From NCBI GenBank assembly GCA_030681595.1, contig JAUXSB010000003.1:95207-159206 (forward strand): a stretch of 64,000 nucleotides of DNA, written 5' to 3'. Position numbers and translations under genes: made by a program. The stretch comes from Candidatus Omnitrophota bacterium. Lineage in GTDB: Bacteria; Omnitrophota; Gorgyraeia; Ghiorseimicrobiales; Ghiorseimicrobiaceae. Under the pieces are notes generated by a model, which was not told where the DNA came from, did no database searches, and was given only the letters and a program-made list of their open reading frames with translations. Below, piece by piece: positions 1,395 through 44,039 of the stretch. Positions within the stretch are counted from its first letter, which is position 1; each line of letters opens with the position of its first letter.

Positions 1395-1517
1395 TTCTAA
1401 TCTGCCCCTTGCGTAAACGCTTGAAAATTTCGGAGAAATTTTCTGCGCACGCTTCGGGATTAGTTCAGCCAAATAACTTAGCTTCGTTATCACTCGCTAA
1501 GTTATGGCTTCACTAAG

Positions 1518-1553
1518 TGGAGCTGAGGGGAGTCGAACCCGCTAACCCGTCGC
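1518..1553 (-). pseudogene. Truncated duplicate of tRNA-Ala 3' half (T-arm plus acceptor 3' strand only)
   Basis: Plus-strand TGGAGCTGAGGGGAGTCGAACCC at 1518-1540 is identical over 23 nt to 1734-1756 of the intact tRNA. There is no D-arm, anticodon arm or 5' acceptor strand upstream of it. Confidence 0.6.
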
Positions 1554-1730: not shown

Positions 1731-1806
1731 TGGTGGAGCTGAGGGGAGTCGAACCCCTGACCCCCTCGTTGCGAACGAGGTGCTCTCCCAACTGAGCTAC
1801 AGCCCC
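1731..1806 (-). tRNA. tRNA-Ala (anticodon CGC), CCA encoded
   Basis: The reverse complement reads GGGGCUGUAGCUCAGUUGGGAGAGCACCUCGUUCGCAACGAGGGGGUCAGGGGUUCGACUCCCCUCAGCUCCACCA. It has the G3:U70 Ala identity pair, a 7-nt anticodon loop UUCGCAA and the T-loop GGTTCGA. Confidence 0.9.
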
Positions 1807-3640: not shown

Positions 3641-4117
3641 TTAATAACCGCCGGTTCCAGACCAGACATCTGTACCCGCAGGTAAACTTGTTCTAATTAG
3701 AAGCGTCCTACCGGTTGCAGTTGCGCTTGCCCCACCTTTACCCGAGCTACCGCACCTTGTTGCTGTAACCGTCAGAACAGGACTGTTGCCGGCGCTTGCT
3801 ACAAAACCATAACTAAAGTAATGCGAAGCCCTGCAGTTTCCAGCCGAAGGAACCTGATCGTTCTGTGTACCAATGCCGGCAGTCAACTCGATAAAATTTT
3901 CATTAGTATTTGCCATACCTGTTAACGCATTATATTGCATATAATGCGCTGCGGCTGAACCACGAACCTGTCCGAGTATTGCTTTTGCCTCAGCGCCGCG
4001 GCTTCTCTCCACCATCTGGCCATACTGGTTAAGGCCCAAAGAAGCCAGAATACCAATAATGATGATTACTACCACTAACTCCAAAAGCGTAAAACCCTTT
4101 CTGTCCAACATCCGCAC
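3641..4117 (-). CDS. Type IV pilin / GspG-like major (pseudo)pilin
   Basis: MRMLDRKGFTLLELVVVIIIIGILASLGLNQY. First gene after the leader cassette, with SD AAGGAGGTG. Confidence 0.75.
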   Translation of the reverse strand: MRMLDRKGFTLLELVVVIIIIGILASLGLNQYGQMVERSRGAEAKAILGQVRGSAAAHYMQYNALTGMANTNENFIELTAGIGTQNDQVPSAGNCRASHYFSYGFVASAGNSPVLTVTATRCGSSGKGGASATATGRTLLIRTSLPAGTDVWSGTGGY

Positions 4118-4210
4118 CTCCTTAATAGGCGCATAATCCCGAAGCTTCGGAATTATTTGCGCAAATTACTGTCGAAAGCTGCGAGAAAAATTTGGAACAA
4201 ATTTTTCAAG
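4118..4210 (-). promoter_or_regulatory. Conserved 5' leader cassette (copy 1) with palindrome AAAAATTTG-gaa-CAAATTTTT; near-identical copy upstream of dapB
   Basis: Minus-strand read: cttgaaaaatttgttccaaatttttctcgcagctttcgacagtaatttgcgcaaataa..ttatgcgcctattaaggagg. About 60 nt are nearly identical to 42248-42304, and a related SD-proximal block follows. Confidence 0.55.
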
Positions 4211-4311
4211 CATTTAGCATTCGGTTAAATTATATAAAAATTCTCGCTTTTACGGTACAAATTTCTATCTGCCATCAAGCAGATATACGTTCAGGCATCC
4301 ACCTCCATTTT

Positions 4312-4339
4312 AGTTTATCATGCTAACTTTTTTTGTCAA
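4312..4339 (-). promoter_or_regulatory. Candidate sigma70 promoter (TTGACA-16-TAAACT) driving the pilin leader
   Basis: Minus-strand read TTGACAaaaaaagttagcatgaTAAACT. Located about 190 nt upstream of the pilin start. Confidence 0.4.
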
Positions 4340-4379
4340 CCAAAATTTGCCAACTGGCGTTTAAATTTTGGTTGATGCC

Positions 4380-4560
4380 GCGAATCCTTTTGCGACGCAA
4401 GGAGAAGAAATCTGCCTGCCATAACGCTTGTCGGGCGCGGCCGCAAATACTTTCGCGGCCCGCCCGAACGACTGCTATTCAGCCCGCCTGACTCCCGCCC
4501 GAACGACATCCAGTCGGGCGCGGTCATTCGGGCAGGTCGGGCGCGGCGCATAAATCATGC
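4380..4560. repeat. GC-rich (about 60% GC) nested direct/inverted repeat island
   Basis: GTCGGGCGCGG x3 (about 4428, 4513, 4536). CCCGCCCGAACGAC x2 (about 4459, 4492). Palindrome GCGGCCGC-aaatacttt-CGCGGCC. GC content contrasts sharply with the flanking AT-rich DNA. ORF 4336..4551 here is judged repeat-driven. Confidence 0.6.
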
Positions 4561-13059: not shown

Positions 13060-13158
13060 CGTATCATCTCCTCGATGAACCCCGAAGTAACTCCGGGATG
13101 AATTTAAAATGTTGAATGATTCTTCTATTATCTTATATACACTATTTTTTTTATCCTG

Positions 13159-41485: not shown

Positions 41486-42199
41486 TTAACTTTTTAGCAC
41501 ATCCTGCATGGAATAAAGCCCAGCGGGCTTTCCAAAAACCCATTTCGCGGCCGCAAGCGCACCCAAAGCAAATAAATCCCGGGAATGCGCCTGATGCTTT
41601 ATTTCAATACGCTCGGAATTCCCGCAGAAAATTACTGTATGGTCTCCAACAATATCCCCTAACCTTATCGCATGTGTGGGTATATCTTTTTTAGTAACAT
41701 GCGCCAAAACCTCTGCCATCTTTTTAGCTGTGCCCGAGGGAGCGTCTTTTTTAGCTTTATGGTGCGCCTCTACTATTTCAATGCTATAATCCGGGCCTAA
41801 CCTTCTTGCTATCTCCGGCAATATCGAAAATAAAACATTAACCCCGATAGACATATTCGGTGAAAAAACTACTGGTACAATTCTCGCAATTTCATTAATT
41901 TTTTTAATTTGTGCCTCATTAAATCCGGTAGTACCCAACACCAAAGCCTTTTTGTATTTAGCAATATAGCCTAAATTCTCTATGCTTGCCTCAGGCACAG
42001 TAAAGTCTATAAATATATCTACCAAAAATAACCCATCGGGGCTGGAAGATATTTTTAGTTTTCCCAAGTCTTTACCGATCATCGGCGTACCTTTCATCTC
42101 CAGAGCAAAAGACAATTCAAATTCTTTATCCTGACTGGCCAAAGCAAAAATTCTTCCTCCCATTTTGCCGCAGGCACCAGCAATACCTAATTTAATCAT
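41486..42199 (-). CDS. dapB: 4-hydroxy-tetrahydrodipicolinate reductase (DapB)
   Basis: MIKLGIAGACGKMGGRI.. Likely ATG start preceded by GAGGAG. The ORF-track TTG start at 42304 lies inside the leader cassette and is probably not used. Confidence 0.85.
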   Translation of the reverse strand: MIKLGIAGACGKMGGRIFALASQDKEFELSFALEMKGTPMIGKDLGKLKISSSPDGLFLVDIFIDFTVPEASIENLGYIAKYKKALVLGTTGFNEAQIKKINEIARIVPVVFSPNMSIGVNVLFSILPEIARRLGPDYSIEIVEAHHKAKKDAPSGTAKKMAEVLAHVTKKDIPTHAIRLGDIVGDHTVIFCGNSERIEIKHQAHSRDLFALGALAAAKWVFGKPAGLYSMQDVLKS

Positions 42200-42247
42200 A
42201 GTAAACTCCTCAATGAGCGCATAACTTACGAATGCATAGCATGAGTA

Positions 42248-42304
42248 AGTTATTTGCGCGAATTGATGCCGAAAGCTGCGAGAAAATTTGTTACAAATTT
42301 TCAA
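42248..42304 (-). promoter_or_regulatory. Conserved 5' leader cassette (copy 2) with perfect palindrome AAATTTGT-a-ACAAATTT, upstream of dapB
   Basis: Minus-strand read cttgaaaatttgtaacaaattttctcgcagctttcggcatcaattcgcgcaaataac, near-identical to 4154-4210. Confidence 0.55.
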
Positions 42305-42328
42305 GTGTTTTGCTTTCGGCGCAACTCC

Positions 42329-43204
42329 TTATAACAATCCGTACTCCTTCAACGCCTTCTTTAGTTTCTCCAGATTTTCAGGCGACATCGGGCACAAAGG
42401 AAGCCTTAAATCCGGCTCACACATCCCCAATAAGCCCATCGCAGTTTTAATCGGAATGGGATTGGTTTCTAAAAATACTGCTTTAATCAAAGGCAATAAT
42501 TTATAGTGCATGTTTTGCGCCTTCTTAATATGCCCTTTTTCAAATTCGCTGACTAAAGTAGCCACATCGCGAGGTACAATGTTTGATACCACCGAAATTA
42601 TGCCGCAACCGCCGATGGCTAAAAGCGGCAGGGTTAAACTATCATCTCCGGAAATAAGAACAAAATTTTCCGGGCAAAGCAACTTTATCCGCGACATTTG
42701 GTCGAGACTCCCCGATGCCTCTTTTACACCAACAATATTTTCGCAATCTTTGGCTAATCGCGCAATAGTCTCCGGCTCGATATTTACTCCGGTACGCGAA
42801 GCGATATTATAAAGGATAATTGGGATATCCACCGAGCTGGCTATCGCTTTAAAATGCTCATACAGCCCCTTCTGCGTCGGACGGTTATAATAAGGAGAAA
42901 CCTGTAAAGAGGCGTCTGCGCCTGCGCGTTCGGCATGCTTGGTTAAAATTATCGCCTCCTCTGTAGAATTAGCACCTGTTCCGGCGATAACCAGAACCCT
43001 TTTATTTACTTTTTCAATGGTAATTTCAATCACCCGTTCGTGCTCGGCCATAGAAAGCGTGGGCGATTCTCCGGTTGTACCGCAAGGAACAATGCCTGAA
43101 GTGCCATTTTTAATCTGGAATTCTATTAATTCCTTTAATTTTTTTTCATCGAGCTTGCTGTTTTTGAAAGGCGTGACAATCGCGGTCATTGAACCCTTAA
43201 ACAT
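42329..43204 (-). CDS. dapA: 4-hydroxy-tetrahydrodipicolinate synthase (DapA)
   Basis: GSMTAIVTPF..GIVPCGTTGESPTLS..VIAGTGANST matches DapA. Likely start is ATG at 43204 preceded by AAGGAGAG, overlapping the dapF stop by 8 nt. Confidence 0.9.
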   Translation of the reverse strand: MFKGSMTAIVTPFKNSKLDEKKLKELIEFQIKNGTSGIVPCGTTGESPTLSMAEHERVIEITIEKVNKRVLVIAGTGANSTEEAIILTKHAERAGADASLQVSPYYNRPTQKGLYEHFKAIASSVDIPIILYNIASRTGVNIEPETIARLAKDCENIVGVKEASGSLDQMSRIKLLCPENFVLISGDDSLTLPLLAIGGCGIISVVSNIVPRDVATLVSEFEKGHIKKAQNMHYKLLPLIKAVFLETNPIPIKTAMGLLGMCEPDLRLPLCPMSPENLEKLKKALKEYGLL

Positions 43205-44039
43205 AGTTATACTCTCCTTTAAAGACAATTTTTGCTTTTCCTTCCAGGCAAACATTTTTAAAACTGTTGCCAACCGTATCAAAATAAACTTTTAGTACTT
43301 CCCCGCCTTGAGTCCTTACATTAATTTTACGCATAGCGCATGGCGCATAACGCATAGCAGCAATTAACGCCGAGGCGACAGACCCTGTCCCGCAGGCAAG
43401 CGTTTCATCCTCTACCCCTCTTTCATAGGTACGCACTTTTATAGAATCATCATTCAATATTTGTACAAAATTTACATTTGTGCCGCCAGGCTTAAATTCT
43501 TTATGCTGCCGGATTTCTCTTCCGATATCGGCCACATCAATTTTATCTAGCCCTTCAACAAAAATAACTGTGTGCGGAACACCGGTATTAATAAAATTAA
43601 CTTTTATCAAACGACCTTTAATCTTAATCGGAACATCTAATTTCACATCTTTTGGGCTAGTAAGCTTTATTCTAACATTAGCGCCATTAACTTCCGATTC
43701 AATAATTCCTGCCCTTGTTTCTATTTTAATTTTTTTCTGGTTGCTGGTTACTGGTTTCTGGCCTGTGCCCGAAAGGGTATTTCTTGCGCTGTAAAGCGCA
43801 GCACATCGCGCGCCATTACCGCACATCTGGGCATGGGAACCATCGGCATTAAAAATACGCATTTTTATATCAGCGGTTTTGGTCTTCTCTAGCAATAATA
43901 AGCCATCCGCGCCAACGCCATATTTCCTATTACATACCTTCTTGGCTAAATCTCTTAGTTCTAAGTTCTTAGTTCTTAGTTCTGTAATAACAAAGTCATT
44001 ACCGGAGGCAACCATTTTGGTAAAATTTATTTTTTCCAT
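43197..44039 (-). CDS. dapF: Diaminopimelate epimerase (DapF) carrying an in-frame roughly 12-aa insertion
   Basis: FTKMVASGNDFVI..GADGLLLLE..CGNGARCAALY are DapF motifs. Insertion SGTGQKPVTSNQ lies between CGNGARC...RNTL and KKIKIETRAG. Confidence 0.9.
   Translation of the reverse strand: MEKINFTKMVASGNDFVITELRTKNLELRDLAKKVCNRKYGVGADGLLLLEKTKTADIKMRIFNADGSHAQMCGNGARCAALYSARNTLSGTGQKPVTSNQKKIKIETRAGIIESEVNGANVRIKLTSPKDVKLDVPIKIKGRLIKVNFINTGVPHTVIFVEGLDKIDVADIGREIRQHKEFKPGGTNVNFVQILNDDSIKVRTYERGVEDETLACGTGSVASALIAAMRYAPCAMRKINVRTQGGEVLKVYFDTVGNSFKNVCLEGKAKIVFKGEYNYV
43734..43790. repeat. Intragenic repeat module, copy B (in-frame within dapF)
   Basis: ttttttCTGGTTGCTGGTTACTGGTTTCTGGCCTGTGCCCGAAAGGGTATttc, homologous to 17778-17832 in uvrA. 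Confidence 0.75.

Follow-up and report, generated by a model that had tools for sequence, protein, structure and literature searches.

A modular hairpin repeat with translation signals at gene boundaries of Candidatus Omnitrophota

Why should a major pilin gene and dapB, two functionally unrelated genes, be preceded by almost the same leader? The question arises in a stretch of 64,000 nucleotides of a Candidatus Omnitrophota genome, which was analysed as a whole and is called the window below. In a preliminary description, the shared leader, with a perfect AAATTTG..CAAATTT palindrome in it, was read as a duplicated promoter/operator or 5′-UTR module, the palindrome as the site of a dimeric transcription factor, and the pair as a hint of a regulon linking pili with lysine/DAP synthesis. 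The comparisons described here point elsewhere. The two leaders are probably copies of a dispersed, modular family of hairpin repeats of Candidatus Omnitrophota, mobile or convertible and similar in kind to REP, BOX, and ERIC, and not a gene-specific regulator.

Copies of the cassette in the window

The shared leader is real, and it lies on the minus strand at both positions. The pilin leader (4117-4228) and the dapA-dapB spacer (42205-42323) hold a common cassette of about 115 nt, with a similarity far above chance: the alignment of the two leaders has a mean column identity of 78% over 195 columns, with long identical blocks. The exact CTCGCAGCTTTCG box occurs in the window at 4173-4185 and 42270-42282 only. 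The pattern GCGCAAATAA-N(5-35)-TTATGCGC has two matches in the window, which are both leaders, where shuffles give an expectation of 0.00, and the palindrome pattern again matches these two leaders only, with 0.03 matches expected. The palindrome reads GAAAAATTTG-ttc-CAAATTTTTC in the pilin leader (4185-4207) and GAAAATTTG-taa-CAAATTTTC in the dapB leader (42282-42302), and its arms are perfect over 9-10 nt in both. The repeat is not a product of chance, and the proposal of a duplicated 5′-leader module ending in a Shine-Dalgarno (SD) sequence stands. The module had been put in the right place but drawn too small. An outer stem, CCGAAWGC / GCTTTCG[G], which had been overlooked, lies inside the cassette, and the ttatgcgcYYattRaggag block, which is indeed present and had been labelled as an SD block, consists of one arm (the 3′ one) of a long hairpin with the SD sequence next to it. 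The copies and their parts, together with the nearest promoter, are as follows.

4117..4228, minus strand: cassette copy A, 5′ UTR of the pilin gene (ATG 4111-4109)
4224-4217 paired with 4179-4173, minus strand: outer stem of copy A, CCGAATGC with GCTTTCG
4207-4185, minus strand: inner hairpin of copy A, the palindrome of the preliminary description
4168-4123, minus strand: long bulged hairpin (P3) of copy A
4122-4117, minus strand: SD of copy A, AGGAGG
4312..4339, minus strand: sigma-70-like pilin promoter (TTGACA, 16 nt, TG-TAAACT), about 85 nt upstream of copy A
42205..42323, minus strand: cassette copy B, filling the spacer from the dapA stop (42331-42329) to the dapB ATG (42199-42197)
42319-42312 paired with 42276-42269, minus strand: outer stem of copy B
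42302-42282, minus strand: inner hairpin of copy B
42266-42210, minus strand: P3 of copy B
42211-42206, minus strand: SD of copy B, GAGGAG
1402..1521, plus strand: cassette copy C
1423-1443, plus strand: inner hairpin of copy C, with a compensatory G-C to C-G swap
1460-1516, plus strand: P3 of copy C
About 13068-13110, minus strand: cassette copy D, a short variant

The gene names given earlier, major pilin and dapB, agree with the Pfam identities, which are a pilin with an N-terminal methylation motif (3641-4111), DapB (41486-42199), and DapA (42329-43282). The pilin gene, with its N_methyl motif, lies downstream of a T2SSF/PilC gene, and dapB belongs to a lysA-dapF-dapA-dapB-dapL operon (dapL codes for an aminotransferase), all on the minus strand.

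Copies C and D were missed by the preliminary description. Copy C came out of a blastn-short self-search of the window and is more diverged than A and B; its palindrome, AAAATTTC-gga-GAAATTTT, is the compensatory swap listed above. It is of the "TCACTAAG" end type, lacking an SD and a start codon, and does not precede a gene; what comes right behind it is a 29-nt duplicate of the tRNA-Ala gene's 3′ portion (1517-1545). Copy D is a weak model match (13067-13149) with the sequence AAATTCA-TCCCGGAG-tta-CTTCGGGG-TTCATCGAGGAG, then 8 nt and the ATG (13059) that starts an ORF of 68 aa; the orthologous protein on a sister contig (L129) belongs to the DUF2582 family. The SD end of copy D is mapped at 13068-13078, while its upstream limit at 13110 is approximate. 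A first covariance model was built from the three copies A, B, and C, and a later one from 90 matches. Copy A scores 107.6 bits with the three-copy model and 67.8 bits in another model search, copy B 128.6 bits, and copy C 122.4 bits.

Could the cassette be a promoter or an operator? According to this explanation, the palindrome binds a dimeric factor that co-regulates the pilus and DAP/lysine synthesis. The perfect arms in both copies speak for it, and so does the TTGAAA in the palindrome, which resembles a -35 hexamer; there is also a separate perfect 13-nt inverted repeat with an AAAATTT-like core, which overlaps the pilin promoter (4336-4375). However, no -10-like hexamer is found 16-18 nt after the TTGAAA in either leader. 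The only sigma-70-like site lies upstream of copy A, outside the cassette, so copy A is a transcribed leader, and the promoter scan at dapB found no promoter-like site; copy B is internal to its operon. The pilin promoter is conserved in the sister contig together with two copies of GGAGGTG that flank copy A in the window, whereas the cassette downstream of it is not.

Fold and anatomy of the unit

When copies A and B are folded and compared with shuffles, they reach z = -3.7 and -4.0, and the same fold is predicted for both. The outer stem (CCGAAWGC / GCUUUCG[G]) encloses the palindrome hairpin and is followed by a linker and the long hairpin. The latter is built of UAAUU/CAAUU, GCGCA, a 2-nt bulge, UAAYUU..., a variable apex, ...AARUUA, UGCGC, and AUUA/AUUG, with its 3′ foot touching the SD sequence. 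Between A and B the apex of the long hairpin is wholly different and still paired, and a U-A pair of the outer helix has become C-G. The consensus of copies A, B, and C (MAFFT/RNAalifold) has 40 pairs, 15 of them with compensatory changes.

The cassette folds into two domains, a 5′ stem-loop and a long bulged hairpin, with a conserved TCAATTC between them and TCATTGAGGAGG after them. A complete unit measures about 95-135 nt and can be divided into four. It begins with a 5′ stem-loop whose sequence varies and which often holds an A/T-rich inner hairpin, the palindrome noted earlier; next come a conserved linker, (GGGA)TCAATTC, and a hairpin of about 20 bp, interrupted by a UC/UC internal loop and a bulge of 2 nt (CAnAyAAyTTA...TAArTTrTG); TCATTG forms the 3′ end. 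The linker TCAATTC is near-invariant, even though it was outside the pattern by which the copies were found. P3 is 98.6% paired across copies. In the alignment of 81 distinct copies, which was fitted to the model and so favours structure, 39 of the 40 base pairs show compensatory changes and 91.9% of the cells are paired. Sliding the partners by 1-3 columns brings the paired share down to 32-44%, and none of 500 shuffles reaches the observed values. The slid controls, together with the plain MAFFT alignment of the three window copies, argue that the covariation is real.

This covariation also bears on the nature of the palindrome. Across the family it varies by paired changes (AAAATTTG/CAAATTTT, AAAATTTC/GAAATTTT, CAGATTTC/GAAATCTG), and in whole subtypes it is replaced by other, unrelated hairpins. 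It thus behaves as a stem rather than as a conserved operator, and the idea of a dimeric transcription-factor site is not supported. The 5′ domain as a whole is modular, with several unrelated hairpin types in the place of the window-type P1/P2, and P3 has been seen alone, in a short form, in tandem, and in divergent overlapping pairs (L057, L105, L017). The tandem arrangements include three units of 160 nt at one locus (L040) and a P3-P1-P1 order at another (L071).

It is worth stressing that covariation does not discriminate between the two classes of explanation that are left, since it is common to regulatory RNAs and to structured mobile repeats. The preference for G-U over A-C combinations, 52 against 31 on the sense strand of SD-type copies, was considered as an arbiter between RNA and DNA and set aside, the bias being just about 2:1 and confounded by the model-fitted alignment. 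Several features expected of a switch were looked for as well. In the predicted ensemble the SD has a mean unpaired probability of 0.52, compared with 0.44 in ordinary leaders (p = 0.02), so by prediction the SD of the cassette is not sequestered. The cassette contains no terminator-like U-tract. A three-way switch, with a 5′ CATTG and the 3′ CATTGA competing for the TCAATT linker, was rejected as a general feature because a 5′ CATTG mostly marks where the unit before it in a tandem ends. An anti-SD (CCUC) was rejected too: some subtypes have one in their 5′ stem, but the window copies do not. Searching the whole window against Rfam 15 at the gathering threshold returned tRNA only; the two leaders, searched with E up to 10, gave chance-level matches to eukaryotic snoRNA and miRNA families (14-23 bits, compared with thresholds of 38-100).

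Distribution, turnover, and the nature of the family

One scan of JGI metagenomes, with a degenerate pattern made up of the long hairpin and TCATTGAG, underlies the wider survey. The scan produced 94 stretches, mainly from groundwater and freshwater sediment; searches with the covariance model gave 90 matches, and with the model rebuilt from these, the number became 103 + 25, about 130. These counts refer to metagenome stretches and not to copies per genome, and the share of SD-bearing copies among them is inflated since the pattern needed TCATTGAG. Protein clusters that carry organism names belong to Omnitrophota, and the named homologues of DapB and PilC come from Candidatus Omnitrophota. 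Members of the family number well above one hundred and sit at gene boundaries across the genomes of this phylum. Two simpler scans were uninformative: CTCGCAGCTTTC-N(7-15)-GCGCAAAT, run on genome contigs, gave 12 single matches in unrelated high-GC bacteria with no flank similarity, about the number expected by chance, and the palindrome pattern, run on viral contigs, gave 14 AT-rich chance matches and is thus too weak for a metagenome scan. A search of the literature on Omnitrophota repeats or RNA motifs found nothing relevant, and within Rfam 15 and this literature the family is undescribed.

The pattern-selected copies nearly always end in TCATTGAGGAGG (or GAGAGG), and the start of a long ORF follows 4-8 nt on. 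Since the pattern imposed just "...GAG", the spacing to the start codon is an independent observation, and it means that a unit of the commonest end type carries the ribosome-binding site of the downstream gene. The genes served in this manner form no coherent set and are functionally unrelated. Ten downstream ORFs were identified by Pfam (YebC, RpoA, IF-3, L31, L20, L7/L12, S20, Hsp20, rubredoxin, and GcvH), and others include dapB in two further lineages (L050, L081), argG, purQ, and several junctions of an ilv/leu operon. The 33 copies found by the model only, which are unbiased by the pattern, show no preferred orientation, with 15 co-oriented with the downstream gene and 13 opposed to it. 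In a second end type, TCACTTA (TAAGTGA as its reverse complement), the cassette lies inverted against the end of a convergent gene, whose stop codon it provides; in five of nine cases the TAA or TGA of a TAAGTGA end closes an ORF that is 100 aa or longer. Window copy C, which adjoins the tRNA-Ala gene fragment, belongs to this type. The proposed regulon of pili and lysine/DAP synthesis is not sustained by this distribution. The preliminary description had itself named a cassette in front of dozens of genes as a sign of something generic, and dozens of unrelated genes are what the survey found.

Comparison between close relatives tells the same story from another direction. In three related genomes (L015, L017, L019), whose DapB is 95%, 89%, and 81% identical to that of the window, dapA and dapB are spaced by 9, -4, and 14 nt with no cassette between them; relative to these adjacent or overlapping genes, copy B is an insertion. 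Full copies are found elsewhere in the same relatives with the three-copy model. At the OTCase-argG junction the situation is reversed, as L017 has a cassette there while the OTCase and argG genes of the window overlap and leave the junction empty. The other outcome foreseen at the outset, absence from all relatives, therefore holds only in part: the dapA-dapB junction is empty in the three genomes and filled in the two lineages mentioned above. The sister genome, a single contig represented by loci L015 and L129, differs from the window at two more leaders. In front of its pilin gene stands a diverged cassette, short in P3, where the window has a full copy, and its DUF2582 leader holds a full-length copy where the window has the short copy D. 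With the only promoter-like site outside the cassette, a palindrome that keeps no constant sequence across the family, a dapB copy missing from three relatives, and dozens of unrelated downstream genes, the promoter/operator explanation is largely refuted, and we consider it very improbable.

Not only presence but also the identity of the unit can change. An exact-protein look-up of DapB led to two groundwater contigs of 1.3 kb; in one of them (L001), DapB is identical to that of the window and the cassette at the same site is of a different subtype. There dapB and the gene downstream of it are about 99% identical to the window, while the cassette differs at about 35 of 125 positions, by paired changes, and resembles the subtype at the argG junction of L017. 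Near-identical flanks around a divergent cassette of another subtype indicate that the unit was swapped. In another pair (L071/L110), with flanks 95-98% identical, a 21-nt spacer in one corresponds to a 130-nt cassette in the other, exactly between the stop codon and the native SD. The converse is also seen. At the purS-purQ junction (L082 compared with L059) the cassettes are 99% identical and the flanks 79.5% and 84.7%, and between L097 and L040 the cassette is 97.7% identical while the flanks reach 56% and 83%; window and L050, on the other hand, have a cassette identity of 70.7% with flanks of 92-99%. The near-identity across divergent flanks includes the apical loops. In L082/L059 and L097/L040, the two pairs with divergent flanks that were inspected, the conserved block stops right after the SD, which argues that the SD belongs to the unit. 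This decoupling of the cassette from its flanks, as judged from the sequences, fits mobile or converted DNA and fits poorly a regulatory RNA that is inherited vertically.

What, then, is the unit? It is a structured, modular, multi-copy element at gene boundaries that carries translation signals, and close relatives differ at the same junctions by the gain, loss, and swapping of units. Its spread would be that of mobile DNA, by transposition, or one copy would convert another. New units seem to go preferentially to a position directly 3′ of an SD already present or of the TCATTG of a previous unit, and the units may persist because their ends restore translation signals. Once transcribed, a unit would place two stable hairpins next to an exposed SD, on its 5′ side. 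Its role as RNA in the cistrons of pilin and dapB is probably that of a structural insulator, a 5′ stabiliser, or a processing site. Such a role, or plain neutrality, is favoured over a switch that responds to a ligand or a factor, given the greater predicted exposure of the SD and the long hairpin that ends at it.

Signs of insertion were looked for as well. Copy A is flanked by GGAGGTG at 4306-4300 and 4121-4115 (minus strand), the latter being the functional SD, and copy B by AGGAGTT at 42329-42323 and 42210-42204 (minus strand). Taken with the new units that elsewhere follow a TCATTG, these 7-nt words suggest insertion 3′ of an SD or a TCATTG; as target-site duplications they are not consistent, with nothing comparable at four other loci (L001, L081, L017, L071). 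The ends and the consensus show no terminal inverted repeats: T[G/A]TCCC..., at the 5′ end, has no inverted repeat in common with CCTCCTCAATGAGC..., which is the 3′ end read as its reverse complement.

A sharper version of the repeat explanation, and not a contradiction of it, is a single-stranded DNA transposon. The cassettes would then be palindrome-associated IS200/IS605 elements or remnants of the REP/RAYT type, moved in trans by an HUH tyrosine transposase, to which the subterminal hairpins would serve as recognition sites, and inserted 3′ of CATTG or GGAG. The lack of terminal inverted repeats agrees with it, as do the hairpins near both ends and the directionality of the element. New units lie directly 3′ of the TCATTG of a previous unit (L129:688 compared with copy D, and the arrays in L040, L079, and L103) or, as copies A and B do, behind a native SD, and left flanks often end in ATTG or TTTG. 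Placement after TCATTG or a native GGAG(G) is frequent; it is, however, not consistent across copies. Events such as L071/L110 look like the replacement of a spacer rather than a simple insertion, and P3 is longer than typical REPs and has no GTAG head. In about 0.7 Mb of fetched loci, a crude regular expression found no HUH...Y motif in 1463 open frames, and a tblastn search with an approximate IS200 TnpA query gave a best E of 0.29, both being weak tests for a Y1 transposase. On balance we hold this particular route to be quite unlikely.

The main competitor of a dispersed repeat is a phylum-wide cis-regulatory leader, such as a riboswitch, an RNA thermometer, or a site for a global RNA-binding protein or RNase, through which numerous highly expressed genes would be controlled in their translation or stability; the regulon would then be very large, and pilin and dapB just two of its members. 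The very strong covariation, the conserved unpaired nucleotides (TCAATTC, the UC/UC internal loop, the 2-nt bulge), and the precise position 4-8 nt before start codons are what one would expect of such an RNA, and many of the downstream genes have translation or stress functions. The sense-strand excess of G-U combinations points the same way. Some junctions (dapA-dapB, purS-purQ, ilvC-DUF3352) are occupied in several species, which could mean long-term functional retention and not repeated insertion. Against this, the target genes lack functional coherence, the unselected copies lack an orientation bias and in part form the 3′ ends of convergent genes, tandem and partial copies occur, and the same essential junction can be empty in close relatives. 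Purifying selection on a fold does not predict cassettes that are near-identical down to their apical loops where the flanks differ by 15-45%. An SD that is not sequestered in the predicted ensemble and the absence of a match to an Rfam family add to these objections. We therefore regard a regulatory leader of this kind as unlikely. The dispersed repeat has its own weak points: the crude tests among the fetched loci revealed no mobility machinery, the copies show no clean insertion signature, and the upkeep of the stems, the G-U bias, and the precise placement of the SD-type copies would fit selection for an RNA function as well.

One bolder form of the dispersed-repeat explanation deserves mention, although we find it rather doubtful. 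The cassette might be a self-propagating "portable ribosome-binding-site" element that homes to translation-initiation regions, settles directly 3′ of an SD or of an older copy, replaces the displaced SD by its own behind a structured RNA insulator, and is exchanged as a precise unit between Omnitrophota lineages, constantly rewiring the 5′ leaders and intercistronic junctions of housekeeping operons. In a variant of this idea, a dedicated protein would recognise the conserved P3 both as DNA, for mobility, and as RNA, for the control of expression.

For those who annotate Omnitrophota genomes, the practical consequence is that the tempting regulon of pili and lysine/cell-wall synthesis finds no evidence, and the cassette should be expected in front of many genes. 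As far as Rfam 15 and the literature searched go, a new and abundant structured repeat has been added to a phylum known only from metagenomes, with a covariance model that can be used to mask or annotate it. Two features are unusual among small bacterial repeats: its ends carry an SD at the correct spacing or, inverted, stop codons, and strains that are almost identical can have a different complete unit at one and the same gene junction. If the RNA form does insulate or stabilise the ribosome-binding site, the cassette would be a natural counterpart of the synthetic RBS insulators; if it homes to SD sequences, it would represent a new choice of target for mobile DNA.

Comparison with known small repeats and leader RNAs

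The REP, BIME, and REPIN sequences of Proteobacteria, which are mobilised by RAYT, are high-copy extragenic imperfect palindromes that occur singly, as inverted pairs, or in clusters, often inside operons, where they influence mRNA stability. The divergent overlapping pairs of the cassette resemble them. The P3 hairpin with its flanks is, however, about 55-60 nt long, compared with 20-40 nt for REPs; the cassette has no GTAG-type head and possesses a second, variable hairpin domain on the 5′ side. A strong subset of the cassettes points in the direction of the downstream gene and provides the SD of that gene, and no RAYT gene was found near the cassettes in the fetched loci, which is a weak test. 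Attenuation has been described for BIMEs (PMC3049150).

The BOX elements of Streptococcus pneumoniae (boxA-boxB(n)-boxC), along with RUP and SPRITE, are small modular repeats, from under 200 nt to a few hundred nt long, interspersed in intergenic regions (PMC3049150). BOX elements are predicted to form stable stem-loops on transcription and are located at the 5′ and 3′ ends of transcription units; their modules occur alone or in variable number, insert beside or into one another, and can affect downstream expression (PMC3049150). In much of this the cassette is alike, as it is small, modular, intergenic, and hairpin-forming, with modules that are separable, occur alone, recombined, or in tandem, and populate many loci. 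It shares no sequence similarity with BOX and comes from a different phylum, so membership in the streptococcal BOX family is not claimed. Terminal inverted repeats and target-site duplications are features of BOX and RUP; for the cassette no such termini and no consistent duplication were found, and the 3′ end of the cassette, unlike that of BOX, is an SD at the correct spacing to the start codon, with an alternative end that supplies stop codons. The lack of terminal inverted repeats also separates it from classical MITEs derived from DDE transposases.

The ERIC/IRU sequences of enterobacteria and the Correia elements of Neisseria are structured repeats of about 100-150 nt in transcribed intergenic regions (PMC3049150). 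They alter processing (through RNase E or RNase III sites), stability, or the expression of neighbours, and are polymorphic in presence between strains (PMC3049150). Their sequences form long, nearly perfect palindromes whose ends are inverted, and a TA is duplicated by Correia elements; the cassette is asymmetric, with two different hairpin domains, direct rather than inverted terminal motifs, and ends that act as translation signals.

Riboswitches and ribosomal-protein leaders, finally, are like the cassette in their place in the 5′ UTR with an end at the SD, in a multi-stem covarying fold, and in conserved loop nucleotides. The cassette differs from them in having no coherent regulon, in occurring in both orientations and in tandem or partial copies, in its rapid gain, loss, and swapping, in an SD that is predicted to be exposed instead of alternately sequestered, and in matching no Rfam family. 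Seen against all of these systems, the cassette is ordinary in kind, but it is an undescribed, abundant, and phylum-specific family that is unusual in carrying ribosome-binding sites.

Cassette alleles at purS and dapA-dapB

Upstream of purS, two near-identical strains carry filled and empty alleles of the cassette, the dispersed hairpin-forming repeat found at gene boundaries (locus L071, 2808-2939, versus locus L110, 488-510). The cassette in the filled allele, in which the long bulged hairpin P3 is followed by two CCCGCC...GGCGGG hairpins, stands in place of a 21-nt spacer and extends exactly from the upstream stop codon to the native SD.

At the dapA-dapB junction the cassette subtype differs between two strains. 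When two related loci (L001 and L050) are compared with the window at 42200-42430, dapB and the downstream gene are about 99% identical, yet the cassettes belong to different subtypes. Several mismatches also fall in the final ~95 nt of dapA, in a flank that is otherwise about 99% identical, and the upstream 149-nt segment is 91.9% identical. The differing subtypes together with the mismatches at the dapA end indicate a short recombination tract with one boundary at the dapB start codon.

The cassettes can also reach a very high density locally. Three tandem 160-nt units, each made of a cassette and a 32-nt spacer, lie upstream of a 146-aa ORF in one locus (L040, 11186-11635), and in another there are five covariance-model hits inside 12 kb, at the junctions of an ilv/leu operon (L124, 5102-11783).

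Sequence elements around the pilin promoter

A perfect inverted repeat distinct from the cassette is found at 4336-4375, with 13-nt arms (TCAACCAAAATTT and AAATTTTGGTTGA) separated by 14 nt. Its right arm overlaps the pilin promoter at the -35 hexamer, and its left arm falls within a stretch that the sister genome lacks. At this promoter the repeat could serve as a genuine operator or as a terminator lying upstream.

The pilC-pilin spacer (4430-4550) contains short GC-rich repeats and inverted repeats, among them GTCGGGCGCGGC three times and CCCGCCCGAACGAC twice; two blocks of these are missing from the sister contig, L129. They may represent a second small repeat family, unrelated to the cassette.

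Just past the promoter, at 4275-4306, a 5'-proximal GGAGGTG precedes a small ORF:

4298-4275: 7-codon ORF, ATGCCTGAACGTATATCTGCTTGA, after the 5'-proximal GGAGGTG

In L129 the GGAGGTG is kept and the ORF is not. This GGAGGTG may once have served the pilin gene as its ribosome-binding site and since been displaced.

The tRNA-Ala neighbourhood

1731-1806, minus strand: tRNA-Ala(cgc)

The 3' part of this gene is duplicated as a 29-nt copy at 1517-1545, and the 13-mer TCAGGTGTTCGCT is present twice, at 1383-1395 and 1680-1692. A tandem repeat (1893-2007; 44-nt unit CCGCAAGCCAGAGGGCAGTGGTTTGGCTTTCAATATAGCCAAAG, 2.6 copies, 97% identity) lies between the tRNA gene and the final pilin-cluster gene.

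Synteny with L129 ends at the tRNA-Ala region (1383-1806), and the tRNA fragment is adjoined by a cassette (copy C, 1402-1521, plus strand). The 1383-1806 interval resembles a scar left by integration or rearrangement at the tRNA-Ala gene.
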